Source: Blasia pusilla (taxonomy: Eukaryota). Taken from it: 64,000 nucleotides of DNA. Position 1 is the first letter of the stretch. Each line of letters starts with the position of its first letter. Where the stretch lies: positions 45,136,001 to 45,200,000 of the forward strand of contig CM114271.1 in the NCBI GenBank assembly GCA_050084515.1, in the 5' to 3' direction. Below are positions 4,374-57,630 of the stretch, piece after piece. The notes beneath the pieces are model-generated. The model was not told the DNA's origin and did no database searches. It was given only the letters and a program-made list of their open reading frames with translations. A program made the position numbers and the translations under genes.

Positions 4374-6645
4374 GCACTCACACTATATGAGAGTGTCTCC
4401 CTCCTCTCATATGGTACCTTCTTCACTTGCTTATCTCTCTGGAGACATCCTTGTCTCACAACACACAGAGCAAGAGCATATGCGGACATTGCTAAGCTAG
4501 TAGCATCAGCTTGGTTCAACACATTCAGCAGCCTTGATTCATTGCCAAAAGTTGTTGCATTGGTAAGTAATGTCTATTGGGGATCCCAATCAGATAAAGT
4601 AGATTGTGTGGTGAATAGTTTCTTGGATGATACTTGGAAGCTCCGCACAAACACGTTGTTCGGTCATCACTCAGACTATATGAGAGTGTCTCCCTCCTCT
4701 CATATAGTCCCTTCTTCACTTGCTTCTCTCTCTGGAGACATCCCAGTCTCAAGCATCGTCCAACGAGGGCGCGGGGTCTATGGTTGCAAGGCTAGGACAT
4801 GCACTACTTCAGAAGGAAAGAATAGGTGGCATGCATATTTTAGAGCCGAGGTGTTGCGATGGCTTGACATCTCCATTGTGAATTTCGTAGACCAACACTC
4901 AGGATATTGGAATTCGGTGTTGAGTGATATTTCTGCTAGATGGGAGTATGTTGGAAACAATGGCAATGGAGTGGCTGTTCCATGTTTGGAGGAATATGCA
5001 CAACGAATACTCAAGACGGAGAGATTTAGATTGCGTCAGACATGGAAAGAAGCTGGAGGAGGCAAGAAAGTGGCCTCACCACCTCATGTACACCCCAACC
5101 AATGAGGGAGATTACTTACGCACTTCATGAGCGAGAGTGCTAAGAGAAAGAGTGAGCAGATGTCCAAAGCACGGGCAGCGATGACCAATCCAATCCGTGC
5201 AGAAGAAAATGGAATGCACCGATTGCAGAGCGCCTGGTCTGCATAATATTGAAGGACCCATCTTTAATTTATATGAACACCATGCATATAATTTGGCAAT
5301 TGGTGTTTGGTAGACTGAACTTGGTCGGTGTAACATGTGTTGTAGAGAAAAGAGTAGGGGCAAACCCCTACTAAGGCGCATGTGCATGAGGAGGCAAAGA
5401 ACCAAAGGAGTTATGGTATAAGTACAGTTTCATAGCAGGTATTTGCATCTGGTTGCTTTAGAGTAGAGGTGAATCTAGTGTATTTCTAGTACAAGCCTGT
5501 TGATATAGACTGAGATCCAGATCTTGTATTTTAGGCACCAGGAACATCTGAGTTGACAAAGATCGGTGCCTGATTAAAGTCTATGGAGGAGTTGTTTCCC
5601 GAGTCTGTGACTTACATAATTGATCGCATGGATGCATTCTCCAGCAGCTTGGACGTGCTAGAGGCAAGCATAATGATTGCTCTTGCTGATCAACAAGAGA
5701 ACTTCACAAAGTTGATGCAATTGATTTCCCTGAGCTAGAGAAGGGACCATGAGGACATAAGGGGTTCCAAGGAGAGATTGAAAAATCCAAGAGTTGTATC
5801 CTCTCCTCATGGAGTTAGTGATCGAGACCCTACTCCTAGTGGAGCACTTGCCTCTATGCCGTTGAGTGTATCCTCTCCTCATCCAATCATCCGACCACCT
5901 TCAAGGGAGAGTACACCCTCTTCGGAGATGGTCACTATTGTGCCTTCGCCTCCAGTTCTACCATAGGTTGCCAAGGGTGTTCATACAATAAGAGGACTAG
6001 ATACAATTTTTGGCATTGCACCAATGGGTCCAAAGAAAAAGGGACGCACAAGAGAGGTTAATGCTACTGTGTTTGCGGGTGACCCTTTGATTTAGGTATG
6101 TGAGTTTAGAGTGATGTTGTGCATTTTACTTTGAAGTTGGTGAAAATCATGATATATTTGAAAGGGTAGTTAAAGTTTCTTGTTGATTGTGATTGTAGAG
6201 ACTACACATGAGGCCCCGACCGTTGTAGGCAAACGCCAAGTGAGGACATCAGGGAGATGCAATTTGGAGGCCACGGTATTTTCAGAGGAGAATGAGGACA
6301 GTGCACGGATGTTGGGGAATGGTGGACCCATGGAGTTGGATCATTGGATCTTCTGAAAAAGCCAATTGTGGTGAGAAGAGCAACACTCAGGAAGAGGATC
6401 CGAGAGGCTACCAAGCCGGTGTTGAAATCTGTTGTGCCTCCGCTGCAACAGTTGATATCACATGAGAATCCCTCTATGGTTGTAGGTTATGGCAGCTTGC
6501 ATGATGGTTGTTCTACTTTCCATGGACGTGACATTCTAGATGGGCATTATGTTCTCCATTTGAGACAAGTGTGCAAGAAGAAATATGCATTGCCATTTCC
6601 AAATATGGTTGACGATCCACCGCAGATTTATGTTGGAGATGTAGG
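4374..6645 (+). mobile_element. CACTA/En-Spm TnpA-like coding remnant
   Basis: ORF 4542-5105 and its continuation (PPHVHPNQ*GRLLTHFMSESAKRKSEQMSKAR) resemble Ptta/En/Spm proteins; 6470-6640 (VVGYG..TFHGRDI..LPFP) resembles the TNP1-type C-terminal domain. Termini not found. Confidence 0.5.
4375..4751. repeat. ~84-bp direct repeat pair (4375-4458 and 4668-4751)
   Basis: CACTCA(C/G)ACTATATGAGAGTGTCTCCCTCCTCTCATAT...GGAGACATCC..GTCTCA occurs twice with few mismatches. Confidence 0.9.
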
Positions 6646-8744
6646 TGGTAGGATTCTACCACCAATCATGGGAAATGGAGGACGTGCATCCAATGCTGCG
6701 CTCATCACTTGTATTGATCATTTTGAGTGGAGAATTGCTACCATGACGATGATGCACCCAGGGACAAGCACGAAGCCAAGAGTAGCTTGTGTGGCTCTAG
6801 CCTCCAAGTTGTTTTAGGATACGGAGGAGGATTATACGGGCTTGAGTTTTCTATGCAGTGCGGCTTAAGTAGAGGCTGTTGCGGTGGTGACTTGGGGTAC
6901 TGCGAGGATGATCGAGCCATTGAGAGGTTGGGTGGAGATAGATCTTGTGAAAGGGACCGATGGTCGACAGGCCAAGGTTCCACAGTCATTTATGTTATGA
7001 GAGGCACTTCACATACCATCGATGGTGCCTCCACAACTAGAAGTGCCCATAGTGGAGAGAGATGGGTCGAGGTCACGAGGAGTTGGAGATATAACTTCTA
7101 TGCCAGCTCGGATGGAGCCAGTGTCAACCACGTTGTTGGAGGTGGCCACTAGGATGACCTAGGCTCCATTTTTTTCCACCATGGAGTTGGCGACGATGGG
7201 AGTTGGACGAGTGGAGGTGTTCTGGCTCGCCGCCATATTGTGTGAGCGTGGAGAGATAAATGCCTCTCGTTTAGAGGTGGTTGAGGAGGTGGTGGACCTA
7301 CTCTCAGAGAAAGTGCTCAAGATGTTCCCCATTGAATCATGGCATGCTATGGCGGCAAAGTTGGTGGATATGCCAACAAGGCCATCGATAGAGCGAGCCA
7401 TGATCATAGTAGATACAGTGTTGTTGGATAACCGAGTTGGAGTGTTTTTCTTGGTTAGTCCCACAGGTATGGTGTACCACCCGCAACACGTCCTACTTGA
7501 TTCTGGAGCAAAACCCTTGATGTTGGGGAAGATGGCGAGTTTGGCGGATAACGGAAAGGTGACATTGATCCTTGTCCCTTACAAATACATGCCTCTATTG
7601 GGGATGTATCACCCATGTAGTACATGATTCGACATGAGTTGGTGGTTAGACTCCAAGTAGAGCATGAGATGGATAGTGCGATAGTGCGAACTTGAGCGAT
7701 TATGACATCGACAAAGTTGTATGATATGTTGGTAGGTAGTACCGTGTTGTAGCCCCTTTTTCTTATTCTGGATTTTTTGGAGGAGACAGTTCTTTATCAG
7801 CGAGTGTGGCGAGTAGGTGATGGACGGGTACGAGAGTGCTAGATCTCTTCGGAGAGATCAACACATGAGATAGTTGTAGTGTTGCGGAGATGACGACATC
7901 AATGGTGCTAGATGTGGATAGGATAGTATATCATGTTGGGTAGATATGTGTGTGCTATCTGGAGTTAGGGACCCAAATGCCTACTAGGGGGGCCGTTGTG
8001 GGGTCTCGATGTATATGCGTGAGTTCATTTTTTTATGGAAGGATCGACCCGTATGTTGGGAAGATCGGTGTTGTGTGGTGTGTAGATGTGACCAACGATA
8101 TGGGTTGTGTAGCGATATGTATGCGCACGATAGCAGTCACATCTTAAATAGACGTAGGTAGAGTTCTATCACGTCGATGGCATAGAGGGTCAAGGGATTG
8201 TTCGGGTGTTACTTCGTCCTGAGATGTCGGATGAGGTTGGCGGCATGTCTGTTGCGTCGAGAACGTCATTTAAGGTGATTTCCCTCTTTTTTTCTTAGTT
8301 AGTCAAGTGACATGTTGACCGAATCAAAGGTCACCCGGTAACGTGTGCACGTAGGTTACCGTTGGGATGACGATTTTTGGGGGAAGAGACTTTTGGATCT
8401 TTCCAAGGGTATAAGAGAGGAAGAGATGTCTTTCTCAAGTCATCTTTCTCATGTTGAGCCTTAGGAGCACCTCTCTTGCCTGTGTATGTAAGAACTAGGG
8501 TGCTAGTTTCCAGATTCCCTCATAGTAGAGGGTGGATGTGGCTCGATATGCTGATATATATTCAGGAGTGGAGTTTTAGGTCGTTTGAGCCCTTTTTACT
8601 TCGATTTTGTTATGGGGTCTCGGTATATATGTGTGAATTCAATTTATTTATGGATGGATCGGCCCGTCTGTTGGGAATATCGAAGTTATGTGGTGTGTAG
8701 ATATGATAAGCGATGTGGGTTGTGTAACAATTATGCACACGAAA
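6645..8744 (+). mobile_element. Non-autonomous, internally deleted member of the DNMT/PHD Gypsy family (copy 3)
   Basis: ORF 7181-7627 (ELATMGVGRVEVFWLAA..HVLLDSGAKPLM) aligns with ORF 59271-60053 of copy 2. After the protease (~7830) it jumps to the PPT (AGGGGGG 7986-7992) and terminal repeats. Confidence 0.85.
7993..8744 (+). repeat. B1-A-B2 terminal repeat block of copy 3
   Basis: B1 ~7993-8132 and B2 ~8608-8744 are diverged direct repeats matching the reverse complement of 54215-54492. The spacer A carries TATAAG (~8410), GTTGAGCCT and AGATTC..TGGCTCGAT motifs shared with A of copy 1. Confidence 0.75.
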
Positions 8745-9523
8745 AATTATTTACAAGATAGATAATCGGAGATAGGCAATCCTATCCTCCTATCTCGTAT
8801 ATTCCTTATAGATTACCAACCCTCGATCGTGCCATGGTTATGCCTCAATAAAAGTGGTACTATGGATGGATAGTACCACTTTTATAAATGTGGTACTATC
8901 CATTTGGTCAATCTAGGATGTAGATTTTATTCTTTATAGTATGTCTTATAGGATGTTGGAGTGCAATCCTCATTGTTAACCCGAAATGGATTGGTGGGTC
9001 TAAGAGCGACTCTAGCTCGAGCTGATGTTGAGTAGTGTCTATTTCACATTTTGAATTCACTAGGATGGGGGCAACACAACAAACTTCATCATTAGACTTG
9101 AATAGTGATGAGACTCCATCCAAAACGTGTGACAAATGAGTCAATGGTGCAAGCCGAAGCCATAATAACCGATGTCAAGTTCAACAACGTTTGTGATGAA
9201 GTAACCGTGTTATACCCAATGAGGCTTATCCTAGATTAGTGGGAGGAGACAATCAGGTGATAGATAAATTAGCTCTTTATTATAATGGTTCTCTAGTGGT
9301 ATGACGAAGCAATTAGATCAGAGGGGCCCAGGATAGATGAGAAAAATAATGTGTGAAACAGCCACTAGGAAGTTATAAACATATTCATGAGAGGAGGTAA
9401 GATCTCAAAACCTCTAGCCAATCATAACATATCTGGAAAAAGAAAAGACCCAAAATTCAAAATTGTAAAGAATAACCAATTTCTAATCTAAAATCAAAGA
9501 TTGAAACCGCCACTGACAAAACA

Positions 9524-9565
9524 CTAGTTAGGACCCGTGAGTAATCTGTGCGATGCACGGTCCCT
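9524..9565 (-). mobile_element. Helitron 3' terminus
   Basis: Minus strand CCGTGCATCGCAC..CACGGG hairpin-like sequence followed by CTAG|T. Confidence 0.55.
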
Positions 9566-9961
9566 AACCCAAATCGCCCCATTCTCAGTCCCTAACTTTG
9601 AATGTTACTTGAATACCCCCTATCAAGCAATAGGTTAAAAGGACACATGGTGGATTGTCCCTCTTGAAAATGGCTCCTACCATAATGACATAGATGTAAT
9701 AATTTGCAGTGGTCGCTCCTCCTAACATAGCATCACTTATAGTAAGTTCCTATATTATTGGATAGCTCAATCTGGTTATACCATCCAAATTCCTCTTAAA
9801 AACTCCATTTGCTATTCACTACATAACAATACTCAATGTTGATGTGAAGGTCATGGTCAAGATAGTGGCCGATGATGGTATCCCATGTAGGTTAGGGCAA
9901 ATGGCTCCCATGGGCATTTCTTTCCATTGTGCAACATGCATTTGGCTCTGTCAATGTTATA

Positions 9962-10333
9962 GGGCCGGGTCGCATGGGCGACTTCTTGGGGTCGCTTGCG
10001 ACCCCAAGAAGCCACCCGCCGGCTGGAACTGCTCGCCGGCGGCGGCTTTCCAACCGGTTGGGAGAATACGACAAAAAAAGCGACAAAAACGATTAGAATT
10101 GGAACGAGTTTTTTCAAATTTCTATCGGGTTGTGGAGGTCACGAGGACACACATCATTTCTTGCGCCCAATTTTTTTGGGCGCAAGAAAACCAAGGCCTG
10201 CCGGACAAAACCAAGGACTCTCTTTGCAAATCACCGACTCCGGCCAGGACAAAAGATTCTGGACCGTTAGATGGAGATCTGCTTTAACAAGGACCACCGT
10301 CGGTGCCCGACGCTGGCCCATGGGACCCGGCCC
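9962..10333. mobile_element. MITE, PIF/Harbinger (Tourist)-like
   Basis: 18-bp TIRs GGGCCGGGTCGCATGGGC / GCCCATGGGACCCGGCCC (1 mismatch); flanks ATA and TTA. Confidence 0.6.
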
Positions 10334-36500: not shown

Positions 36501-37532
36501 TTAGCTTGGGGCATGTTAGGAAAGTCAAACAGTCTCTTTCCTTGATCTTGTAAGTAATAGTGAACTTCCAAAAATGCAATATTGATCATAACATCATCAA
36601 AGGAAAGATTAGAAATTCCTATTTTCTCCAATGGAAAAGTTTTGAAAGGTGTTCAGATCATGGTTAGTTTCTTTAATGCTCAATAGAGGGTACTATTAGG
36701 AACAAAACGAAGTATTTAAGGAGTGATCGTGATGATTTCTTATCTCACATTGCTCCCATAAGAGATATTATATGAATGGAACCAAAAATGACTCCATAGC
36801 GAATGGAACCAAAAATGACTCCATAGTGTAGTAGCTAGTTGGGTCGGTGTGTTGTAAGCTAGAATAATTACAAATAGGTGGCAAAGTAAAGAACCCGTAC
36901 GGATCATAAAATCTTCCTCAAAGCAAGAGAACACTTCCCTATCAACCTCGAGAAGTCCCAATTGGATTGCAATCTCCTTGAATGTTAGACATAATACTCA
37001 ATCAATAGTTCTCAAACATTCGTATATATATAGTTGCTCCTCAAACATTATGGAGTAATCTTAGCCAATGACGTTCTCCTTCACCTATGGATGAGTGAAA
37101 TAAATTACCTCATCCCTTTCCACAATAATTCATTCACTTTTGAGGATGGAATATAAAACAAAAATCTAATGTACAAAAAATAGCATATAATTAACTTTTG
37201 AGTATTTGCATAGATGAGTATGTATATGTGGCCAATGGAATGACCACAACCAATTTTTTTGTATCCTAAAAATTCATCTTTTTTTAGTCCAATGATAATA
37301 TGAATGAAAAATCTGTATACATATATTGATAGGCAGTGGAGTCAGATAGATAAGTTGTAAACCATTATGTTAGAGTTGTCTCTCTATTTAGTTGCAAAAC
37401 ATCTTTGGGGGCGTCAACATCATTGAAGTACACCATTTACTACTCTGGAAGATGAATAACTAATTGCACAGTACTTGGAAGTCCAACATGTAGACTAAAC
37501 TTGAAGAGTCGCCAATATGCCTTCATAGAAGA

Positions 37533-38106
37533 TGTCGTGCGAATCCACATCGTCATACAACATACATCGTTGACATACCATACTCACATACATACATAAC
37601 ATAGACGAGAGTATCCACAAACACAAGTGTACCACAACTCGAAATGCGTGAAAGACCTACTGTCATAAAACACGTTTACAATCACATACAATCGAGCCAA
37701 ACCCACTCCACGATGGGAGAATCTAGGTCGAAGCTTGCGGGAAACACCATAGCCAAGAGCTCTACTCACTACTAAGGCTAACTCCCAACGCAATAGGCTC
37801 AACTCAAAGAACTGACTGTTCTTTGAGTGCACTCCACCTTATATCCTCCAACCTAAGAGCGGGCCCTATTGGGAAAGTCACCCCCAACCCTATGTATGGA
37901 ACCGCATCTCTACCAATCCACTACGGTCCTACATAAGGAATGGCCTCTACTAGCACACCATACTCTATGACATAATCCGTATCGTCATGACAAATTATCT
38001 ATCGTGAATCCACATCGTCATACAACATACATATTTGACATACCATACTCACATACATACATAACATAGACGAGAGTATCCACAAACACAAGTGTACCAC
38101 AACTCG
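37533..38106 (-). repeat. 3' terminal block B1 (38106-~37996), A2 (37992-37642), B2 (37641-37533)
   Basis: B1 and B2 are near-identical ~105-bp repeats; A2 matches 46887-47252; the PPT AGGGGGG (38113-38107) abuts B1. Confidence 0.92.
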
Positions 38107-38276
38107 CCCCCCTAACTAGAGGTTAGGTCCCTCTAACTCCCAGGTAGCCCTATACATCTACTACATGCTATACACCTTCTTGGGTGCCCGAATCAGAAGG
38201 CCGGGTGCTAGGTTGCCCCATCGTTAGTCGCACATCTGTAATCCATATCATGCAAAGATCAAGTCATCTACCTCTC

Positions 38277-38420
38277 CTAAGTACATCGAGGACAAACCCA
38301 CCTTCCAAGAGGAACAACATCCAAACGTGGAGTCAAACACATCATGTGCCAACCCCTAGAACACCGATCACACACCAACATACGGGTGGGTTACCAAAGC
38401 AGACCCACACAACATGCACC
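38277..38420 (-). pseudogene. PHD finger at the C-terminus of pol (copy 1)
   Basis: CMLC..MLVCDRCSRGWHMMCLTPRLDVVPLGRWVCPRCT-stop (C4HC3), with one frameshift. Confidence 0.9.
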
Positions 38421-41230
38421 TCAAGCTAGCACGTATCATGGCTAAGCTTGGGTCAAGATACCATCCACATTTGAAGATGACATTGCGCACAATTACGCAC
38501 ATGGTCCTTCCAAACAACTTCATCACGACCCTCCAACATGAGAACTCCGAAGCTAACACTCGCAAGACTCATAAAATAGTGCGGCTGCCGTCACATCCAA
38601 CGTTGTCGGGGCAATCTGCTGCAAATAGACATAGTCCCCACATGGAACCTACGAATCGATGGTCGATAACCTCCACACTCGAATGGTTGCATACCGCAAC
38701 GTATCCCTGTGTTGAGCAATGGCAAGATTCTCAAAGGCGGTTGGCATAACTCTCCGAAAGAGCTCCGCTCGCTGAGAACACACCCTCATCCACATCTCTC
38801 GGGTCATCAAGGTTCACCACCTCACTAGACTCTCGACAATTGCTCTTTGGCAAGTCCGGATCTCGGCCGTATAAAGAAAATAAGGTGAGAAGGAAGCCAA
38901 GGATGCTTGGCGATTGAACCTATACCCCATGGCTAACCATGGCAACCGAATATCCGGTCTCCAAGATGCCCCTTCAGAGGCCATACTTGCGCAATGCCCT
39001 CTTCACCGCCTCGAACCACACGCCAGCCAAACCATCCGCCCCGGATGATCTCGAGACGTGGTCCGATGATCAATCAACGCCTTGTCACACAAGACCTGAA
39101 ACTCACCTTGAAACTCAGACTGGTCGGTCGGTCAAGACTTCAGCTGGTGCACCAAAATGACTAAGCACTCTATCAGAAACGATACGCCGTTCCTCACTCG
39201 CCTTGTCCGGTAATGCCACCAACTCAATCCACTTGGAGAAGTGCTCCACCATCACCAACACATATCGATGATGTCAAATACAATCAACGGTAACGGTCCC
39301 GCATAAAGTCCACACTCCAACGGTAACCCAACCCCATAATAGGCAAGGGGTGTAATTGTGGTGTAGGGGCATTAAATGATGCCTCACCCGGTCACAAACC
39401 ATACAACGTGACACCAATCGCTGCACTGAGTATGCATGCCACGCCACCAATATCGCCAAGGAGTAAGCTATACGACGCTTTACCCCAAAATGTTCCAACT
39501 CCTCATGGGCATGTCGCACAATGCGCTCTCTCTGGAGCCAAATGTGGCACTACTCGTACTCTACCATCCTCCCACACGCGGAGAATATGTGTTCCTCCAA
39601 TCGATACCTCTTAGCACGTTGAAGAACACGGTCTCGCTCCTTGGCACTCACTATGCCCGGCACCCTACTGGTCCGTAGGAACTCCAACACCAATGCATCA
39701 TCATGAATATCACGTTGATCCATACCACCATCTCCAACCTTAGGATCTGAAGGTTGGACATCTACCCTCTGACTAGAGTAAGATATCACGTGGTCCTCCA
39801 TACTAGAGTCCACCCCTAACCAACATAAAAAGGTGGATGCATGCCAACCTGGCACCATCTCCTCATCAACCTCGCCATGCCATCTAGCCCTTGTTGTATC
39901 CTCTTGGCTAGTACATGGGTTCCTACTCAACCCATCAGCATCAAGGTTGGCAACCCAGGTCTATGTACCACCCGGAAGTCATACTCTGTAAGATAAGAGC
40001 CCACCGTGCAAGCTTCCCCGTAAGCTTGTCCGACTCCATCAACCACTTGAGCGGTTGGTGATCAAGAACAAGGGTAAACGGGTGCCAAACAAGTAACACC
40101 TAAAGTGTGCCACAGCCCCCACACTCGCCAAGCACTCTCCCTCATATGAACTATAGCGACTCATTGCATTATTCGAACGACTTGCATAGGCCACCACAAA
40201 CTCCATGTGCTCATCATCATGTTGTGTCAACACCGCTCCAAGTCCCAACCTACTCCAATCAGTGTGTAATTGGAATGGGCGCCCTCTGATAGGTCTCCTC
40301 AAGATAGGCGCCGCCACCAATCGGGCCTTAAGCTCCACAAAAGCTCTCTCCGATCATCTCCACAAGTGCCACTCTTGATCTGATTTCAGCAATTGGTTCA
40401 AAGGCTTTGCCATAGCACTAAATCCCTTCACATACCTCCGATAGTAGTTCGCCAATCCCATGAATGCTCGAACTCTACTCACATCTACCGGACGCGGAAT
40501 AAGTGCAATAGCCTCCACCTTTGCTTGTGAACTCCCAAACCACTTGGATAGATCACATGACCCAAGTACTCAACATCCTCATGGAAGAACTTACACTTTC
40601 TGGATCCAAACGTAGACCATGAGCTTTCAACCGCTCAAACACCATCTGCAAATGTATCGATGCTCCTCCACCGTGTTATTGAACACCAAGATATCATCAA
40701 TGTAACACCGAACAAAATCCAACCCCGCTAGGATCCTCGCCCATCACTCTTTGAAACTCGGCAGTGCATTCTTCAACCCAAAGGGTAAGAATTTCCACCG
40801 GTACAAACAATCCTTTCCATGAGAGTTGACACCCCAAAATGTTGTCTTGGGCTTGTCACTCTCCGAATCGGCAATTGATGGTATCTCGCTCAAGATCCAA
40901 AGTACTGAAAATCTTTGCCTGTCCCACCACATCAAAGATCTCCTCAGGTGTAGGCATGGCATACCTATTGGCCTTGGTTTGCCGATTGATAGGACGGTAA
41001 TCTCCACACATCCGCCTATCCGTGTAGTTGCCATGTATATCCTTTTTAGCAGGCATGACAGTGGCTGATGCATACTCTCCATGCGACAACTCCACTAATC
41101 CAACCTCCAAAAGGTCCAACGTCCTACTCTGAATCAAGTCCCTCTCCATATCACTATATTGGTAGGGACGACGGAAGATTGGCGTATCACTAGCCAAATC
41201 AATCCGTATACCGGGTCCAACCAGAGAACC
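38420..41230 (-). pseudogene. RT, RNase H and integrase of copy 1 (frameshifted)
   Basis: RT RRMCGDYRPIN..YAMP, FLPFGLKNA, CYIDDI; RH FQLHTDWS..VVAYASR..YEGECLA; IN HEELEHFGVKR..CMVCD, VEHFSKWIE. Confidence 0.92.
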
Positions 41231-41639
41231 CAACTCCTTCATGCTAAAGGCAAAACAACTCCTATAAGCACATAGGAAGTGTGTCAAGCGTCGTTTCTCA
41301 CCTCCCGTAAGCTTGGGCCCAAGTAATGGCTCCCAAGTCTCCTCCACTGGCACACTAGAGGGAGAGGACGATGCCATTGGTCGCACGTAACCCCTCACAA
41401 GATGGTACACCCTTAGCTACACCATCATCTCGAGCAAATAACTCCTCCACCAAAGCATGAGCAACCAACTCCACATGCCCACCATTACATCCCATTACTC
41501 CAAGGATGCAAAAATACTACTCCTCGCCTTCACCGATGCCTCTACCATCCCGGTAGCCATCGAGCTCATTACAAGGGGTGGAAGACCCACAGACATAGTC
41601 CGAAGTCGACGCTGCTCGGCCATACCAAGACTCAAAATC

Positions 41640-42570
41640 CAAGTCAAACAATTCAGGTACATGGCCTGACCCAACACATGACGTCGTGAAGCCTCGAAAT
41701 AGAAGCAATTTGTCACACCGAGAGCAAATCCCATCGCACGCTCTCTCTCATCAACGTTAGGCTCCACCAACGCCGCACATGAGAATCCCATACAAGCCCG
41801 GGACCACCTTCCCCGTAGGCATGTGACGCGGGAAAACTCACAAATGTGGGTAGTGCCATCCTAGGTCTGGCCCACACGGTTCACCACCGCCATGGGTGAC
41901 CAATCAATAACCTCACCACTTGAGAAAGTCGCCAAGATTCAAGAAACTATCCACCGTAAGGCGAGGATCCCGCCAGACCGCATCATATGCTCGACGAGAA
42001 CCTCCCTAGGCAACAAGTTTGTCCACCACAAGCGTGGGCGATGTGCACGCTGAGCCAACTCGCGGCCAGCATCCAACAACACCGCTGGTCCAATCCAAGA
42101 GCGCACTCATGAACACTCGCCATCATCCGGTCCGAGTGTCACCCAACAATGGAACATTCTCCGAATGTAAGCTAGAGCACGTGCTCGATGAACTGAAGAT
42201 GTCGTAACACCCGTAATATCTCCCAAAACAATCGAGACCTAGGGTCATGTAATCCCTCACCACAACCAAAGACGTATGACCCGACATGGCCATCCAAAGC
42301 AATCACCAAATCCACAGGACCAACCTCTCAAGGTCCTGCGCTTCAACAATGCAATGTGTGATGGTAAAGCACGCTGGTACCCACGAATAGCCGATGGCGG
42401 CAACAACTCAGGATATCTCGCATCAATCGACCAATATGTCGGGATGAGACTCTCGGGCCGTCTCATCTTGCTCCACATACACGTATCTCCAAGACAGAAT
42501 ACCGCCTGCAACACGCCGCCAAACCAATGCTAATCCCACCAAAGAGATCTAACACACAAATGCCCTCCGC
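41640..42570 (-). pseudogene. DNMT3-like C5-cytosine DNA methyltransferase domain inside pol (copy 1, frameshifted as assembled)
   Basis: Motif I VLDLFGGISIGLAA; II RYVYVE; IV GPVDLVIA-GWPC; GLHDPRSRLFWE; VI ENVP; IX/X ERERAMGF..RRHVLGQAM. Confidence 0.9.
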
Positions 42571-42999
42571 GGATACCGCCATACAATGGGTGTAGTATCC
42601 AAAGGGGTAACCTAATGGACTGAAGTAGGAGTCCGTGGGGCCTCCTCTTCCTCGTGAGGTATAGACCTCACACCAAGCCTCTGCACTAGGCGACGCCTCT
42701 TGCCGTAGTGCACCGCTGAACTCCAAAGTGGCACATCCAACGATGAGGATGCCATGCTGCAAAAATAGGGACCTCCTCTACCTCCTCATGCGCAGGAGAA
42801 TCCATAGCGTAAACATTACCCTCCAAAAGTCTCTGGCCAAGTGACTACTCCACTAAAACCACCACAGATGCTAACATCTTTGGGGAAGACCCTCGGTCGA
42901 GCCCCATAAATAAATCTCACAGAACTTGGCTCATACGTCCATCCCGATCGCCAACCAGGTCTGTCAGAAGATTGTCTCGACCCAAGAATCCATCTGAAA

Positions 43000-45200
43000 A
43001 CCCATCGGGTACAATATTGCTCCTCCAACTAGTACATCATACGACTCGGATGATGTGACTACCTGCAGATACTCCCAACCGGAGCTATCGGTCGCATGAT
43101 CTGGTCTCAACTGCAGAAAACTTCTCCCGTGTCATGAATTGAGACCTATCATTGGCTCTCCAAGTGATGTTTGAATCTGGAATGGGCAAGGCTCAAGCTC
43201 GACCTCCGAATACCCAAACCAATACATGCCGCCTTTCCCAACATCAAAGGTTGGGCACCGTGAGTCTAACAAGACTCTATCCGGTCTATACACCTATCCC
43301 TGTAGGACTCACCAATCGGAAGATCCCACTCCGGTTGTCCAACATACATACACACGGTGTAAGCCTCTCACGATCAATGGTGGCCGGGTGGTAATGCATC
43401 CATCTTCGCCGCCGCCGCCGCCAAGTAGCACCGGGTACTCAATGCTACTCTCGACATAGAGGGTCGCTCCACCGCAACACCCTCATCCACCTCAACACGT
43501 AGCAAGAATACCCCACGTTCACACAACGTGGTCGCTAATCAAATACAGGAGCTAAGTCAACTCCTAAAGCCATCACCCGTGGCCGAAAACAATGGGGATC
43601 CCAACACCGAAGTTGCCATCCGCACATCGCATTGATGTCGATCCGTGTCTACTACACGCGATGTAGATGCCTCGATCCCCACTGCCGGCTCAATAGGTCG
43701 CTGAGGAACCATGGATGGAGTCCTAAGCACCTCAGACAACAAGAATGACTGGGAAGCCTAGCCTGTCTCCCAACCTCACCCCCTCTGTGGGTCCAACTCC
43801 ACAAGAGCACCACGTGGCTCGATGCTCGAGTGGCTCCTCTCAGAATCGCACGGTGATGCCTCAACCTCGGCCGCACTCGCCATATAAGAGAGATCATCCC
43901 TCCATAAGAGGTGGAAGCCCTTGCTCCCGAAACGATCTATCGCCGGATACCGACCATAGTAGCCAACTCGCGCTCCAATGCTCAATCCTCGGCAGCCATA
44001 GTCGATTGTCGAGTGGTAGGGGTAGCCACCATAGGCTCTCCAACCACCTGGTCCACCTCTACCACCCCTACCACCTCTACCACCTCGGCCTCTCGGAGCT
44101 ACTCCACCACGGCCACGGCCCGATCTCAACTCCGATGAAGATCAAAGCAACGCTCGAGGATGACCTAGTCTCCCGCAATGATCACACTGAGTTGGGGCCG
44201 ACCGAGGCCCATCCTCCAAAGTTCGTCTCCCATCCTCTTGGGGACAAAACTTCCTAACATGATCACCTCCACATGTCCAACATGATCGCCCTTCGCTGAG
44301 GCAGCAAATGAAGGCAATGGTCTCTGCACAAATGTCCTCTAGGACTTGATGAGGTCGCGTGTACCCCCCCACGACTCCCACTACTACTACCACCACCACT
44401 ACTACGAGATCGTGAGGTGGGCGGTGAACACGAGAAGTAGTAGTTGTATCCCTCTTGAATGCGGATGTCACCACTCTCTCCTTCACCATGTTAAGCTCAA
44501 TCTTCTCGAGATAGAGCAAACACATGGGTCAATGTGGGTGAATCATCACTCATAAGAGTAGCATCACGCACCCTACGGCGCAAATCTCTCGCCCAAGATC
44601 CCATACCAAAAATCGATCGCTCGATCCTCGTCACACCCTGGTAAGGTAATGAAATCAAGCGCCGATACGCGTGTATGCCTCACGAAGACTCTCACCGTCT
44701 TTCGCTCAAAGTCCTGAAGATTCCTCAACTTCTCCGTCTTCACTCCTTGATAGTTCTTCTTCAACCTCTTGAAGAACTCGCAATCGGCTAAACGATGGTG
44801 GGGCACTAGTACCCCCACTAGTACCTCCACCGGTATCCCCACTCCGGCTCAGACTGCATTACCACTCAAAGATCGGATCGGGCCGGGCATAGTAGGAGCA
44901 CTACTACCAATACCACCATGGGTGATAGACACATAGCCGGAGACCAATATTGTCTCCATGCCTCAATCTCATCAATATGGTCCTTCCTAAACTCATGGTA
45001 ATCATCCATGGGTGGTCCTTCCAAGTGTTGAAACAACCCTTCCAAGCCAAGAAGGGTGTAAACAACGCATGGCGTTCCGCAACATCTGCATATCACACCA
45101 CGTATCAAACTCGCATGAAGTCCTCCGACTCAATGGTACCCACTGCACCGAGTATCGCCGTGGGCCCTTCATGGCCCCATATCCACCGTCCATGTCCCAA
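43000..45200 (-). pseudogene. gag (two CCHC knuckles, RGG tract) and aspartic protease of copy 1
   Basis: CWTCGGDHVRKFC, CDHCGRLGH, GRGGRGGRGGRGG, and RVLLDS(G)AQPLM at ~43240-43280. Confidence 0.85.
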
Positions 45201-46874
45201 ATCAATGGAGTGCAACACTCGATAACACCGAGAAGACTGGGGTGTTTGGAACACCTCGCCCTCCTCCTCTTCATCAACCGTCGGAAGTGGAAAAGGTAGC
45301 CGATACCTAAATCCACTCCGTGTGAAACCACCACTGCCCACACCACGGTCCCCAACCAGACCACCCGACAGCTCCGTGATGACCAACGCCGATGCCGCAC
45401 CACCACCAAATTACCAAGTGACGTCGATGTCGCTATACTATTCTAGCTCTACTAGCTATGGGTGTAGGCAACCTAACTTGTCATCACCACAAGAAGTCTC
45501 CCACAATCTACTCGTCATCCCTCCAGCCTCACTACCGCTAGCACACAGGAGTAACACTACTCCGAAATCGGCGTCAACCCTAACAATGGGCGCAAAGCAA
45601 GAAGCACGATGGAGGGATCCAAACACAGAAATCCAACGACAACCCTCCAATCGCAAATGGAAATCAAGGTAACACAATCCACCAAACGTGGTGCCCTCTG
45701 AATCCACCAAACCCACCACACAATTCTAACGCAATAGCTACTCCCCCGCGGGTTGATGACGTGCTAGTCGAACGCGCAACACCTGAAAATATCACCTGCA
45801 TGGAGAGGCTACACCGTAATATGCGCTAGAGGTACATCAACCAAAAACCTGAGATGCATAAAGCGCCTAACACATCTCCGAACAGCACCAAATGAGCTAC
45901 AACAGTCTGTACACTGGCATAGTTAAGAACTCGGCAGTTAAGCGTCCTCCAGGCAGAATAGCCCAAAGATGGGTGACCAGTTATGCAAAACTCAAATCCC
46001 AAATCCTGCAAAAATTGCCTCACGCCCAAGCAAGCAAGCTTGCTTGCTTGCTCCTTGCTCCTTACTCCGCCTCTCACGCCCACTCGCCCCGAGCTACCAC
46101 GAGTTGCCTCGAAGCCTCGAAGCCTCGAAATGCTCGAGACATGCCCCTATTGCCCCGTTCGCCATGCTTCGCTATGGAGAGAGGTCCAACTAGGGCGCCC
46201 CCAACGGGATAGGCATCTCCAAAAATGAACGAGTCACCAACCAACCAGCCCCTCCGATCCGCTGTCCACCATAGCCAGACCTTGAGCTAGTCCGCGAAAT
46301 TTCGATCAGAAATTACTTCACAAATACGTGACCAAAATCAAATCTATTTCGATCAGAATTCAATTGACCACCATAGCTATCTCCCCACAAAAACTCAGCT
46401 ACAACCGAGCTCCGTACTCCGAGCTAAAAATCAGACAAACTTCTTTGTCCATACACCTCTAGAACCCAAATCCGGATAGCGCTTCCGCCAAGTTTCATGC
46501 ACGCGAGAAATCCGCAACGCTCCACGCACTCGAGCAGATAGCTTCACATGAGATCACAATACAAGTAGCAATAGGAACCTCTCACCCGATCTGGATGGAC
46601 TTCAACAGAGCTTCCGCACTCCAAGCTCTCCACATAAGAAAACTGTCAAACACGAACAGAATCTTCAATGCTTGATAACTTCCAACTCCTTGACGAAATC
46701 CGGCGATCTACAGCGTTGGAAAGCTCTCAGCAAGGCGCTTCTTTCCCAACCAACCACGCACCTGATTCACACCTCCAACATAGGCAACAAGCCCCGAACA
46801 TCCACGGCTGAGTACACAATCGGCCCTAACCAGATCCCTCTTGATCTACAATCAAGCTACCATCGATCTACTCC

Positions 46875-46886
46875 AGTTCTTTGAGT
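46875..46886 (-). promoter_or_regulatory. Self-priming primer-binding site
   Basis: ACTCAAAGAACT directly after A1 is the exact reverse complement of AGTTCTTTGAGT (47058->47047), which starts 30 nt after TATAA (47088). Confidence 0.8.
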
Positions 46887-47252
46887 GAAATGCGTGAAAG
46901 ACCTCATTGTCATAAAACACGTTTATAATCACATACAATCGAGCCAAACCCACCACGATGGGAGAATCTAGGTCGAAGCTTGCGGGAAACACCATAGCCA
47001 AGAGCTCTACTCACTACCAAGGCTAACTCCCAACGCAACAGGCTCAACTCAAAGAACTGACTGTTCTTTGAGTGCACTCCACCTTATATCCTCCAACCTA
47101 AGAGCGGGCCCTACTGGGAAAGTCACCCCCAACTGAGTAACCCCCAACCCTATGTATGGAACCGCATCTCTACCAATCCACTACGGTCCTACATAAGGAA
47201 TGGCCTCTACTAGCACACCATACTCTACGACATAATCCGTATGGTCATGACA
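46887..47252 (-). repeat. 5' terminal repeat A1 with TATA box
   Basis: Matches 37642-37992 with a handful of substitutions and ~3 indels; no B segment attached. Confidence 0.92.
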
Positions 47253-50200
47253 AAGACATATATCTGGAAGAAATTATGTCAAGTATTCAAGTAAGGAGAA
47301 TGAAAAAATAAAATTTAGAAATAAACTATAATTCAAAAAAAAATCATCAATTGGTAGAATCATACTTTGTATTAAGATATGAGGTTGTCTTATCAATGAC
47401 TTCCATTACATTGGATGTATCCATATTTTTTAACAAGTTAAGTATCACTATATCAGACCCCTTATATACATATTTATATAAGTTCTTCACAAAAAAAACA
47501 TTACTTGTGATCTCTTAATTAATATGACAATCAAAGAGGGTGCACAACATAGATATTTATTGATCTTGTGGTCAATTCACATTTCATGGATCAATAATAT
47601 TCGTATAAGATTTATTTTAAATAATTAAAGATTTGGCTCCTTGAATGATTTCTTAACCTATCATTTTCTTTCAAAGTAAAATTTCCAAATTTTTCTCCGT
47701 ATAACGACCCCTACTACTCTCACATATAATAAATTCTCTCCCTCGTATTGCCATGTATGGTTTTTGTGGCATATGGGTACTAAGTAGATTCGTAGTGGAG
47801 AGGCTCCATAATGCAAGTTATTTTGTGACAACTTCTCAATCATAGATATGAATGGAGATGTGAGCCACTTAAAAATGACTTTCGGATTTATTGCACTCAT
47901 GTTAGCATTTATCTACTAACCCTCCATATAATCAACCACATTCTTCCTTGGTATTAAGACTTTTTTTTGTACTTTCTCCAATCCCTTTGTATTAATCCTA
48001 CAATCAATTAATCAATCAAGCAATCAATGCAAGAAAATTTTAATTTTTTCTTTAATCTTCTTTCCAATTCGGTAAGTAATTTAATTTTTCTTTCGTAATT
48101 TAATTTCCTCCCCTTCAATATTATTGTCTGCCTCCCATAATACCATTATGAGCGTTAACTTACTTTGACGTACTATGAATGACTGAATGAGTGCGACTTG
48201 TGAAATGTTTTCATGAAGCCAGTTCATGAAACCTCTCTAATTTTTAAAATTTTCCCCTATACTAAACTTAGAATCTGAATTAGGGGAGAGTTTAAATAGT
48301 AATTTCTTATTTACTATTTATAATTATAATTATTAAAATAACTTAAAAATAAGAAAGGAAATATCCCCATTGGAATATTCCAAATTCTCCCTCGTATCTC
48401 TTAATTTTTTAATCTTAAAATCTAAAATTATTTCTTCAATTTTATCATAAAAAAGAATACTTTTCAAATTTCGTTCGGAGGGAAAATTGATTCATCTTCT
48501 AAGAAAAATAACAGGTCAAATTTATTTATTTTATTTTTTCAATCGAAGCATGAGAATTGAGAAATCTAGTATTTTCTAATTTATTTAAAAAAATTTAAAA
48601 TAAAATCATCATATATTTTAAATTTTAAATATATTATTTTAATTATATTTTTAATATTGGAATGTATGTGCTAAAAATTTTTCACACTATTTTCTGGGAT
48701 GCACGGGCTTAGTTATCTCCCAAAATGGTAATTAACGTTCAAACTATCAAATATCATTCAATTAATTTCAAACGATCTCATTAATTGAGATTATATCAAA
48801 TGAAAAAATTGAAAAAAAAATACCCTCCGACAATAATATACTAGTTAGGACATGCCAGGGCGTTGACGAACAATTTCTCTGTCAATTTTCAAACCATGTC
48901 TAGATGACGTTTAATTCCGAGAGAAATTCAATGACACAACAAGCAACTCTAGAAATGGACTCGTAGAGCCATCCACGTAGACAACACCATGAACATGGAT
49001 CTTTGTTTAATTTAACATGCGATGTCACTATCTTTACCAACATCTATATATGGTCCAAATTATAACGACCGTAAAATATGGTTAAAAAATAATAACATGC
49101 GTCAACCATAAGAAATAGAACTGAAAACACAGCATCCTCCAACTAAGTAGCAGATATATATTACCTTTCGTTCCCGGTAATCTCACCCGAACTTTACCAG
49201 TGGTTCTTGATATCGGAGACAAGGCGGTGTGGACGAGAAACGCCAGATCGTGCGGAAGCCAGAATTCCTATCAGCTTACGCTCGCAAGCTTATGCCTCCG
49301 TTCCAGCTGGCTCTCGGCGAGTGGCTACCGTTCTCCGGTAGCTCACAAGCTGTTTGGTGAACTTTGGTCTCTGACACGTGTGTGGAAGGGAGACGAACAC
49401 CGGTTCCTTCCTTTCTGATTGGTTGGGAAAGAGTAGGGAGTGAGAGTGAGCGAGATGGAGGGGGAACATTCTTGTCAACGCACCGACTTGACACGGCGCC
49501 ACGATGCGCGCGCGCGTGGATGGAGGAAGACCACCGGATGCTCGCCAACGGCTGGGAGTCTCCTTCGGACGTAGCCAGCCAGCCGCCCGCACGCCCGCAG
49601 CGTCCGTAGGAGAGTCTGCTCGCCTGCGATTCGACCTTAAGCCGCCTCCAATCCAACAGTAGTTAGTTAGGCGACGTACATATTACATACACTTCAGGAC
49701 TGTCGTCGACAACTACTACTGAAGCTTCGGGATCCCCCGGCTTCGATGTTTTCCCGAGGCTCCGTAGGGGAACTGGATCCTCTCCTTCAGCTGAATATCT
49801 ATATATCCATCGGCGATGGACACTCGAAAGACTTTCGATCGGCTGAAGTGTCTCCGCTCGGAAGTGAGTGAGGGAGAAACGCCGCGAGCTACCGACTGAA
49901 CCGCTTGTGGTTTTGCGATTTATCGAAGTGAGGCACGTGTCTGTCAAGCGAGACGATCGGGAAAGGAAGTGTCCGTTTCGATCTTCTCTTTCTCTTGCTC
50001 GCGATTAGATTAGTGGATTGCGTCTTGAAAGTGGAAACGTAAGTGTGTGACGGTTGAAGCTGCCCATGCATATCTACTGGTAAGGAAGGGGAGAGGGGAG
50101 AAGAAAGTCCATGAGAAGTAGAGCATTCCACTCTTGTATAAGCTATGTTTAAAAGTAGTGAGTGCGTTTCTTTCAATGTTCCATCCAGTTTTTGGTGTGC

Positions 50201-54214: not shown

Positions 54215-54492
54215 GTTGTCGTGCGCATACATATCGCTACCCAACATACATCGCTGGTCACATCTACGCCACACAACACCGATCTTCCCCACACACGGGT
54301 CGATCCACATGTACAAAAATCAACTCATACATATACATGGAGATCACACAACGTTGTCGTGCGCATACATATCGCTATACAACATACATCGCTGGTCACA
54401 TCTACACCACACAACACCGGTCTTCCCCACACACGGATCGATCCACACATGTACAAAAATCAACTCATACATATACATGGAGATCACACAAC
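54215..54492 (-). repeat. Tandem pair of ~139-bp B repeats (54215-54352, 54353-54492) next to the PPT
   Basis: Near-identical direct repeats, each starting GTTGTCGTGCGCATAC on the plus strand. Confidence 0.95.
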
Positions 54493-54567: not shown

Positions 54568-54715
54568 CTATACACATCTCGGACACATCCATCGTCCCGT
54601 GGGAACCAGATCAAGAGGGGGGGTCAGACATGACATATGCCACCCTTGAGAACAACCATCACATACCAACATGGTGGCTGCACCCCTCGTAGATCCGCAC
54701 AACATACACCTCAAG
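54568..54715 (-). CDS. PHD finger at the pol C-terminus (copy 2)
   Basis: CMLCGSTRGAATMLVCDGCSQGWHMSCLTPPLDLVPTGRWMCPRCV, an intact C4HC3. Confidence 0.92.
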
Positions 54716-57630
54716 CCTGCAGATACCACTGCCAAGCTCAGATCCACCGTCCCATCTACGTTCGGAAGATGACATGGCGCACAATTGCGCACATGATCCT
54801 TCCAAACCATACCATCCCGTCCCTCCAATATGAGGACTCAGGTCGGTAATACCTTGCGCACACGTAGGATCGTGTGCCCTGCAGTGACATCTAGCGTCGT
54901 AGGTGCCGCTTGCTGTAAATACACGTAACCTCTAGGATGAAACCTCCTAATACCTGGACGATAACATCCTCCATGAATGGTCGCGTACCTCAATGTATCT
55001 CTATGCTGGGCAATAGCTAAGTTCTCAAAGGCCATAGGCATAACTCTAAGAAAAACCTCTGCCCTCTGAGAACATGCTTGTACCCACACATCTAGATCAT
55101 CAAGATCTAACACCTTCGTCATGTCACGTTGAATCGCTGCAGGTAAATCAGGCTCTCTCCCAAAGAGCAAAAAGTACGGTGAAAATGTCGCCAAGGATGC
55201 CTGCCGACTAAAGCGATAACCCATAGCCAACCATGGCAACTGTAGGTCCCACTCGCTGAACTGTCCCTTGCAAGCCATACTTGCGCAATCCTCTCTTCAC
55301 CGTCTGTACCACTCTTTGCGCCAACCCATCCGCCTCAGGATGATCTCTGGACGTGGTGCGGTGATCTATCAGCGCCTGATCACACAAGGCCTCAAAAATC
55401 TCCCCTGAACTCGGTACCCTGGTCTGTCAACACCTCCGCCGGTGCTCCAAAGTGACTAAGCACACGATCTAGAAACGCATAAGGTGTTCCCTCGCTCGCC
55501 TTGTCTGTAGTGCCACCAACTCTATCCACTTGGAGAAATGCTCCACCATGACCAACACGTAGCTATGATGACACCCCGTCAATGGCAAAGGTCCGGGAAA
55601 GTCTAAAATCCACCGATAACCTAAACCCATAATCGGCAAAGGATGTAATTGCGGAGTGGGAGCATTGAAGGCTGCTCGCACTCTGTCACATACCATACAT
55701 CTGGCCATAAACTGCTGTACCCCATTAGGCATGCCGCGCCACCAATACTGAACCTGGAGTTAGCTGTAAGTACGCTTTACTCCAAAATGTCCCAACTCCT
55801 CATGGGCATGTCGCACTACACGTGCTCGTTGGGAAGGATGAGGTACCACTTGTATCCTACCATCTCCCCATACCCGCAAAATGTGAGTCCCCTCCCACCG
55901 AACCTCTTGGCTCCTCAGAGGATCCGATCCCGCTCCCTAGCACTCACTGTACTCGCAATGACGCCAGTGCGCAAGAACTCCACAACCTCCACGTCGTCAT
56001 GGATATCACGACCACCTGTCGCCTCCTCACTAACCTCCGGATTGAAAGACTCATCATCCAATCCCACCACTGGAGTCATCACTTGTGGCTGACCTGCCAT
56101 AGTCAACCAACAAAGATAGGCAGATGCATGCCAACCGGGCACCATCTCCTCATCACTCTCTCCGTGCCATCGAGCTCCTGTGTCGTCTCTCTGACTCGGA
56201 CATGGGTTACGACTCAACCCATCCGCATCCAGGTTCAACCGAATTGGTCTAACTCATACTCTTGTAGTAATAGAGCCCACTTGGCAAGCTTTCCCGTAAG
56301 CTTGTCGGACTCCATCAACCACCTCAACGGTTGATGATCAGTGATAAGTGTTAAAGGGTTGCCGAATAAATAGCACCTGAAATGTGCCACAGCCCACACT
56401 ACAGCCAAGCACTCTCCCTTGGAGGAGCTGTACTTTGCTTCTGCAATGTTGTTCGATCAGCTCGCGTAAGCCACAACAAACTCTCTCTCCTCGTCATCCC
56501 TCTGAGTAAGCACTGCTCCTACACCCAACATGCTCCAATCTGTATGTAACTGGAATGGGCGACCCCTAACCGGTCTCTATAAAATGGGTGAGGACGTCAA
56601 CCTGTCCTTGAGCTCCTGAAATGCTCGTTCTTGATCATCTCCCCACAACCAAACCTGATCAAGTCTCGTCAACAAGATCAAAGGCTTTGCGATCGCACTA
56701 AAATCCTTGACATACCGTCGATGGAAGTTTGCCAGTCCAAGAAATGCTCAGACTCGACTCACATCTATAGGGCGTGGAATGTGCGCAATAGCCTCTACCT
56801 TTGTCTGATGAACGCCTAACTCACTCGGGTATATGATGTGTCCCAAGTACTCAATCTGCTCTTGAAAGAATCTGCACTTGCTTGGATGTAACTTCAGTCC
56901 ATGTAACTGCAATCGCCGAAACACCTCCTCCAAGTGTCGCTCATGCTCCTCAACCGTGGAACTGAAGATAAGAATATCATCTATGTAACATCGTACAAAA
57001 TCCAAGCCAGAAAGAATCCTATCCATCACTCTCTGAAACTGTGCAGGTGCGTTCTTCAACCCATATGATAAGAACCGCCATTGATACAAGAAATCTCTTC
57101 CGAACCGATCTATCCCCCAGAATGTTGTCTTCTCCCTGTCCTCCAACTTGATAGGAAGTTGATGATAGCCAACACGGAGATCTAAAGTACTGATGATGTT
57201 TGCATGCCCTACCGCATCAAAGATCTCATCAGGAGTAGGCATGGCGTACAGATCTGACCTCGTCTGTCGGTTGATAGGACGGTAGTCTTCACACATCCGC
57301 CTATCCGTCCAATTTCCATACATATCCTTCTTCTTCGGCATGACTGTGGCAGATGCATACTCCCCATGTGATAACTCCACAAGTCCTACCTCCAACAAGT
57401 CCTGACTCCTGCTCTGAATCAAGGCTCACTCCATATCAGAATACTTGTAGGGTCGACGAAAGATTGGCGTATCACTAGCCAACTCAATATGTATCCCGGG
57501 ACCCTTCAGTGTACCAAAGTCTCTCATACTGAAGGCAAAACAACTGACATGCCCTCTCAGAAACCTATGAACTCGCCGTCGCTCTCCTCCTATCAACTTG
57601 AGACCTATCACAGGCTCCCAAGTCTCCATT
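54716..57630 (-). pseudogene. RT, RNase H and integrase of copy 2
   Basis: ORFs 56748-57422 (DYRPIN, YGLKNAPAQFQR, YIDD), 55469-55732 (CMVCD, DFPGPLP) and 54838-55278; contains stops and frameshifts. Confidence 0.93.

Follow-up and report, generated by a model that had tools for sequence, protein, structure and literature searches.

Which RNA primes reverse transcription in a retrotransposon whose 5′ repeat is not followed by a tRNA-type primer-binding site (PBS)? This question is raised by an element in Blasia pusilla, located in a stretch of 64,000 nt (GenBank assembly GCA_050084515.1, contig CM114271.1, positions 45,136,001 to 45,200,000 of the forward strand; from here: the window). Tf1 of Schizosaccharomyces pombe is the established case of self-priming, in which the first 11 nt of the element's own RNA serve as the primer. 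Self-priming has been described for the Tf1/sushi group and, in the published survey consulted here, predicted for the plant elements Tcn1 and TAR (PMC6317226); self-priming in plants is therefore not new as such. A first-pass annotation of the window had proposed a Tf1-like mechanism for the element described here. We analysed its repeats, its coding domains, its relatives and the pairing between the putative PBS and the predicted 5′ end of the transcript, and we weighed other possible primers.

Methods

Relatives were collected by scanning metagenome contigs with an RT alignment, which yielded 133 confirmed relatives among 498 candidate stretches; 80 were kept and are referred to below by numbers with the prefix L. 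The self-comparison of repeats covered 52 loci of at least 6 kb. Pfam searches on the short window ORFs missed the reverse transcriptase (RT) and the methyltransferase, and more intact relatives were used instead. For the RT piece at 40856–41416, 379 of 494 candidates proved to be relatives at E ≤ 1e-3, and the named ones came from Calypogeia, Sphagnum and Marchantia, which points to a bryophyte as the probable host.

Results

Layout and coding domains of the element

The + strand between 37.5 and 47.3 kb is rich in C and A, and broken ORFs with similarity to RT, RNase H and integrase lie on the minus strand; hence, the element reads from right to left. In coding-strand order it consists of A1, the PBS, gag/DNMT-like/RT/RNase H/integrase, a polypurine tract, B1, A2 and B2 (Table 1). 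Self-comparison placed the A repeats at 46887–47254 and 37641–37994 and the B repeats at 38006–38106 and 37541–37641. Contigs of other copies, obtained from sequencing runs, diverge from the window at precisely positions 47253 and 37532.

Table 1. Features of the retrotransposon in the window (positions of the window; a dot indicates that no strand applies).
Feature	Position	Strand	Basis or remark
Whole retrotransposon copy, degenerate	37533..47252	-	repeats, junctions, contig divergence points; termini TG...CA
Target-site duplication, left	47253..47256	.	TCTT on coding strand; same 4 bp at 37529-37532
Target-site duplication, right	37529..37532	.	junction comparison
Repeat A1 (5′ repeat)	46887..47252	-	holds TATAA, hairpin and predicted R-U5
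TATAA box-like motif	47084..47088	-	TATAAA in relatives (alignment of 35 A copies)
Hairpin ACTCAAAGAAC-AGTCA-GTTCTTTGAGT, 11 bp	47047..47073	-	in A1; A2 copy at 37802-37828; relatives keep it with loop ATA
Predicted self-primer (C)AGTTCTTTGAGT	47047..47059	-	predicted first 12 nt of transcript, putative start A 47058, C before
Predicted minus-strand primer-binding site ACTCAAAGAACT(G)	46874..46886	-	adjoins last base of A1
DNMT3-like C5 cytosine methyltransferase domain, degenerate	41498..42777	-	relative L006:8651-9997 maps to window ORFs 42466-42777 and 41498-41860
RT and RNase H, frameshifted	40042..41416	-	RT_RNaseH_2 at E 2.5e-24; RT homologues
Integrase remnants (H2C2 zinc finger, rve core)	39118..39549	-	rve E 3.2e-5; Integrase_H2C2 weak, E 0.027; clear matches in relatives
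Polypurine tract TTAGGGGGG	38107..38115	-	directly upstream of B1; relatives keep TAGGGGGG(C/T)G
Repeat B1, internal	38002..38106	-	B1/A2 junction 37993-38001 mutated in window copy
Repeat A2	37641..37992	-	repeat self-comparison
Repeat B2, terminal	37533..37640	-	ends ...GCACGACA; begins where the PBS would begin after A1

The closest solved relative of the RT is that of Ty3 (4OL8, E 3.5e-38). Upstream of the RT in L006, the stretch 8651–9997 matched PF00145 at E 7e-9, and its best solved matches were DNMT3A/3B chains (E 5e-11). The more intact relatives carry RVT_1, RT_RNaseH, Integrase_H2C2, rve, a C-terminal PHD finger (E 2.7e-8 in L035) and the upstream C5 methyltransferase. A further PHD finger in the window (54571–54837, minus strand, E 1.5e-11) was grouped with L035:12005–13126. 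CCHC knuckles were read by eye in the ORF at 44145–44528. No chromodomain was matched in the 69 ORFs, of 112 listed, that belong to elements A and B of the window, or in any of 15 ORFs from relatives, and no member of the tyrosine-recombinase family was found among the matches in the ORFs of the window and the relatives.

The element conforms to the Ty3/gypsy type in its order gag, RT, RNase H and DDE integrase, in the TG...CA at its termini and in its short target duplication, except that it does not possess two identical terminal LTRs but ends in A on the 5′ side and in B on the 3′ side. The DDE integrase together with the target duplications ruled out a reading of A1..B1-A2-B2 as a Ngaro- or PAT-type tyrosine-recombinase element.

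Repeat order and junctions in relatives

The order A...B-A-B recurred in the independent loci L012/L035, L027, L060, L006 and L019, and B-A-B ends were found in others. The junctions are uniform: TAGGGGGG(C/T)G leads into the start of B; the end of B, ...GCACGACA, is followed by 2 nt and by TGTCATGACC, the start of A; and the end of A before B2, ...CATTTTC(A), is followed by the start of B. The genomic ends are TG, the start of A1, and CA, the end of the last B, and they lie between 4-bp duplications. Of 11 distinct complete copies, 9 have a perfect duplication, and in L027 and L051 it agrees in 3 of 4 bases. The arrangement A-int-B-A-B was present in 11 distinct loci, the window counted, and A-int-B in 13, with target duplications in both forms; the shorter form may be a primary product or may stem from later recombination between B1 and B2. 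B did not occur upstream of any of the 26 5′ ends, and A-B-A-int-B was not seen at them. The copies are old and broken, with no active element among those seen.

Within the window copy, A1 and A2 are 93% identical over 370 aligned positions and B1 and B2 98%, whereas the window repeats are only 71–82% identical to those of the L copies. In five L copies, A pairs from the same copy were 0.897 identical compared to 0.855 for other 5′-3′ pairs, a gap that partly results from 12 extra bases included. Since A1/A2 and B1/B2 are closer within than between copies, both repeats appear to be regenerated in each cycle, like LTRs.

Further related copies were noticed. In the window, element B (54215 to about 62000, minus strand) is ~72% identical over pol to 38283–41260, and its end at 54215–54492 (minus strand) reads polypurine tract, B1, AC, B2, with no A between the B copies. 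Element C (6638–8742, plus strand) is an internally deleted relative ending in B1, GC, A2 (478 nt) and B2; its A2 carries the direct repeat TCTTTCTCA after TATAAG where other A repeats carry the inverted hairpin. Searches of the window for the 5′ ends of elements B and C found none, so both were dropped as further subfamilies for testing, and a search with the PBS predicted from the A2 of element C matched only that A2 itself. Outside the window, L014:4920–5820 (the same locus as L018:11338–12234) is rearranged: an RNase H region comes first, then an inverted piece of A with the hairpin and ~500 nt of unrelated sequence, and after these the 3′ half of A, which 15 nt of the PBS separate from B and the flanking sequence.

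A complementary site begins directly behind repeat A1

A1 (47252..46887, minus strand) ends with ...CACGCATTTC. The adjoining 12 nt, ACTCAAAGAACT (46886..46875), can pair without a mismatch with AGTTCTTTGAGT (47058..47047) on the same strand. The first-pass annotation had claimed a perfect 12-nt match behind A1 with a partner 30 nt past TATAA; coordinates and sequence agree with this, and the perfect pairing in fact reaches 13 nt, as 46874 pairs with 47059. Counted from the first T of TATAA, 47059 lies 29 nt away and 47058 30 nt. By chance, a repeat of 366 nt would be expected to hold a perfect 13-mer 5e-6 times; in a control within the window, an anchored complement of at least 13 nt in the preceding 366 nt turned up at 5 of 18,164 sampled positions.

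The two A repeats are alike up to ...CATTTC and then part, A1 continuing into the 12-mer and A2 into B2, the start of which is identical to the start of B1 behind the polypurine tract. The A2/B2 junction thus sets the end of the repeat independently, and this end coincides with the first paired base. The same coincidence was observed in L012, L027, L035, L060 and L019, and behind A1 the junction in the relatives is the end of A followed by ACTCAAAGAACT. Minus-strand DNA would be expected to begin at this end of repeat A.

The absence of a TGG-type tRNA PBS directly after A1, also claimed previously, was confirmed: there is no TGG at the boundary, and one lies 11 nt inside (46877..46875), away from the repeat end. 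The downstream motif TGG(G)AGTAG is set back from the repeat end by 11 nt in the window and by more than 20 nt in the L loci. It is no tRNA site, because A2 ends before the 12-mer and is without the bases in between; a tRNA PBS at the inner TGG was ruled out for this reason. ARAGORN detected no tRNA genes in the window or in the 42 loci, out of 80, that were scanned. Just behind the PBS, both subfamilies carry the motif GGAGTAG(T/A)T (window 46860–46877 and the L loci), which occurs also ~20 nt past the hairpin within A (TTGGGAGTAGTT in the L copies).

The element's own transcript as the probable primer

We assign a probability of roughly 0.7 to the reading that the 12–13 nt at 46874–46886 (minus strand) are the minus-strand PBS of a Ty3/gypsy-type element primed by its own RNA. 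Transcription would start ~30 nt after the TATAA motif in A1, at ~47058. The first 12 nt of the transcript (AGUUCUUUGAGU) would fold back over the R-U5 portion of A1, ~170 nt long, and anneal to the site behind A1. A presumed cut behind the duplex would free a 3′ OH, from which the reverse transcriptase would copy R-U5, as in Tf1. The plus strand would later copy the primer, so that the site would be re-templated from the RNA 5′ end in each cycle. A host RNA would then presumably not be used as a primer.

The distance from the TATA motif to the paired stretch is 29–32 nt in the window, L011, L018, L051, L057 and L060, and a pyrimidine-A step is located just before the 12-mer in both subfamilies. 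In structure predictions for RNA beginning at the predicted start, the 5′ end folds onto the site and closes a multibranch loop in the window and in L019, with energies of −61.4 kcal/mol (z −2.4) and −57.8 kcal/mol (z −2.7), respectively.

Conservation and covariation of the pairing

The sequence ACTCAAAGAA is intact in 16 of 26 A copies with non-B sequence behind them and has at most one mismatch in 22 of the 26, rows that include same-locus duplicates and one A-PBS-B junction. When an 18-bp helix was evaluated in 16 copies, 84.4% of the 288 cells were paired compared to 34–49% in six shifted registers. Changes on both sides affected 5 of the 18 pairs. Of 500 shuffles, 7 attained the observed covariation score of 0.145; this control is not to be read as a probability, and the sample consists of few decayed copies from essentially two subfamilies. 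Two compensatory pairs each were read from the alignment in L025 (CA>TG with TG>CA) and L044.

The hairpin loop differs by subfamily: the window has AGTCA, the L loci have ATA. In either case the 3′ extension of the site complements the loop without being a copy of it: it reads ...ACTG in the window, giving 13 nt, and ...ACTATGTT in L019/L026, giving a perfect match of 17 nt. The covariation of PBS and 5′ end across subfamilies, put forward in the first-pass annotation as a check, was thereby borne out by compensatory changes as well as by a subfamily-specific extension into the loop. Position 13 of the helix is mismatched in 10 of the 16 copies, which fits a 12-nt primer starting at the pyrimidine-A step. 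In general, then, the pairing covers only 12 nt, and the longer matches may be incidental.

Alternative explanations of the site

The partner of the site is the 3′ arm of the A1 hairpin, so that the 12-mer at the same time nearly repeats the sequence of the 5′ arm. This bears on the most serious alternative, which we consider unlikely, that the element primes itself with the 3′ arm of the whole hairpin instead of its extreme 5′ end. Such a primer could come from a transcript starting upstream of the hairpin or from the A2 copy of the hairpin near the RNA 3′ end; it could be cut behind the arm and anneal to the site in cis or in trans. The full hairpin is kept in the A copies of both subfamilies, as this explanation would have it, and in L019/L026 the 17-nt complementarity runs through the loop into the 5′ arm, where similarity to the hairpin complement, read by eye, extends over ~24 nt with two transitions. 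The mismatch right past 12 nt in 10 of 16 copies speaks against the longer primer, and the TATA spacing and the pyrimidine-A step fit a transcript start at the 12-mer.

One contig from run X20, another organism, aligned over window 46875–47205 and reads from the end of A through ACTCAAAGAACT and the loop into the inverted hairpin arm and bases upstream of it, with 21 letters visible. This arrangement agrees with a primer from the hairpin arm: it could represent a longer inverted PBS region or primer-linked cDNA, and the primer could then be longer than the extreme 5′ end. Against this stands that the piece is a single contig with 21 loose letters.

Two further explanations appear improbable, to about the same degree, and both more so than a primer from the hairpin arm. 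According to the first, a host RNA complementary to the 12-mer, be it a tRNA fragment or another small RNA, primes, and the match to the repeat is secondary. Half-tRNA primers are indeed described for plant Ty1/copia lineages (in the survey PMC6317226). Here, however, the site does not begin with TGG, the inner TGG is excluded by the end of A2, and no Rfam family matched at E up to 1 within 46500–47400. Moreover, the extension of the site changes together with the loop of the element itself, and individual copies show compensatory changes, which is not what a fixed host RNA would give.

The second holds that the complementarity is structural or regulatory only, a packaging or dimerisation stem or a duplicated palindromic promoter motif, with priming elsewhere. 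That the motif is palindromic, sits at the promoter and is repeated, and that GGAGTAG follows both the hairpin region and the site, would suit this explanation, but in both subfamilies the repeat boundary equals the start of the pairing to the base, and at one locus 15 nt of the site are kept between A and B. The latter is expected only if these nucleotides were copied from a primer or stood at a cDNA end. The locus in question, seen twice as L014 and L018, has the structure A, 15 nt of the site, B, a junction as would be expected of joined cDNA ends with a retained copy of the primer.

Permuted termini and the ends of the cDNA

In the self-priming reading, the polypurine tract would fix the start of B as the 5′ end of the plus strand and the PBS the end of A as the 5′ end of the minus strand. 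From the positions of these two sites, the linear cDNA should be [B-A]-int-[B-A]. Reverse transcription would hence define a repeat B+A, from the polypurine tract to the PBS, of which A1 is only a part, and the genomic copy A-int-B-A-B would be a permuted form of this cDNA. Because PBS and polypurine tract flank the A/B junction, the A2/B2 junction looks like joined cDNA ends, a possible sign that integration proceeds from an end-joined intermediate. The integrated ends lie at a CA-NN-TG site between B and A, which in L019 is a 16-nt palindrome.

We tentatively suggest, as a possibility held with much less confidence than self-priming itself, that an ordinary LTR-type cDNA is made, self-primed at the end of A and with its plus strand started from the G-run before B, but that the DDE integrase cuts the internal CA-NN-TG of an end-joined circle or concatemer, yielding A-int-B-A-B with 4-bp duplications. 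An unbiased cut of a symmetric 2-LTR circle is doubtful, since none of the 26 5′ ends shows the other product to be expected from it, A-B-A-int-B. Inheritance of the A2/B2 junction by a DIRS-style 'splint' is unlikely, given that A1/A2 and B1/B2 are closer within a copy than between copies.

Discussion

As in the Tf1/sushi elements, including Tcn1, the PBS predicted here lies directly behind the 5′ repeat, is complementary to ~11–12 nt at the predicted transcript start and is not of the tRNA type, and the 5′ end is predicted to fold over U5. Unlike in that group, the partner site in the window family is the arm of a conserved hairpin, and the termini are permuted (A-int-B-A-B). The Tcn1 elements, as characterised in the survey cited above (PMC6317226), have a 5-bp duplication in 100% of cases, a mean length of 6.4 kb and in 100% a C-terminal chromodomain of the integrase, whereas the window family has a 4-bp duplication, the window element measures ~9.7 kb, and the relatives possess a PHD finger and a DNMT3-like domain. 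The Tf1-like self-priming proposed in the first-pass annotation is therefore supported as a mechanism, by complementarity, boundary, conservation, covariation and fold, but does not extend to membership in the plant Tf1/sushi (Tcn1) clade, whose features the element does not show.

A counterpart in domain content is KnitGypsy-Dnmt3 of the charophyte Klebsormidium nitens, a Gypsy element with a Dnmt3-type methyltransferase in Pol and DIRS-like repeats (de Mendoza et al. 2018, PMC5890265). Going by its published description, it shares with the window family the Gypsy-type domains, the methyltransferase in Pol and the DIRS-like order A-coding-B-A-B. The available text of that report does not treat its PBS, polypurine tract, target duplications or priming, and assigns the acquisition of the methyltransferase to the K. 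nitens lineage, while the hosts of the window family are bryophyte-like. By its domains and repeat order, the window family is of the KnitGypsy-Dnmt3 type, in a land-plant lineage. Our literature search found no paper reporting a Gypsy-Dnmt3-type family in bryophytes, and among the papers listed, those with split direct repeats all dealt with tyrosine-recombinase or unrelated elements.

Among the tyrosine-recombinase elements, the PAT, Ngaro and DIRS-type elements (A1-B1-A2-B2), as outlined in PMC4157794, resemble the window family in the order of terminal and internal repeats, and the DIRS type also in a methyltransferase domain in Pol. They differ from it in that the window family has a DDE integrase (rve and H2C2), 4-bp duplications and a C5/DNMT3-like methyltransferase, gave no tyrosine-recombinase match, and has A and B copies that are homogenised within a copy, as LTRs are.

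Retroviral integrases have been reported to cleave the palindromic LTR-LTR junction of 2-LTR circles, for PFV (PMC1180852) and HIV-1 (PMC1905944). Measured against these accounts, the CA-NN-TG palindrome (CATGACAGCTGTCATG in L019) is likewise situated where the integrated ends form, and a cut by the integrase would give processed ends. In contrast to the retroviral junction, the palindrome of the window family lies inside the repeat defined by reverse transcription and away from the joined cDNA ends.

Self-priming frees a retroelement from the host tRNA and has so far been associated with the lineages Tf1/sushi/Tcn1 and TAR. In the present case it would operate in another Ty3/gypsy lineage, one with DNMT3 and PHD domains; the mechanism is already known, and this variant is new in its lineage, its hairpin and its permuted termini. 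PBS and polypurine tract provide fixed markers of the cDNA ends beside the internal A/B junction, away from the genomic ends. If the joined-end reading is true, split direct repeats would be a footprint of joined-end integration, whichever enzyme performs it, and this lineage would form a living connection from LTR elements to DIRS/Ngaro-type elements. With these markers, the copying and insertion of elements with split direct repeats, long unclear, become directly testable in plants amenable to cultivation and transformation.
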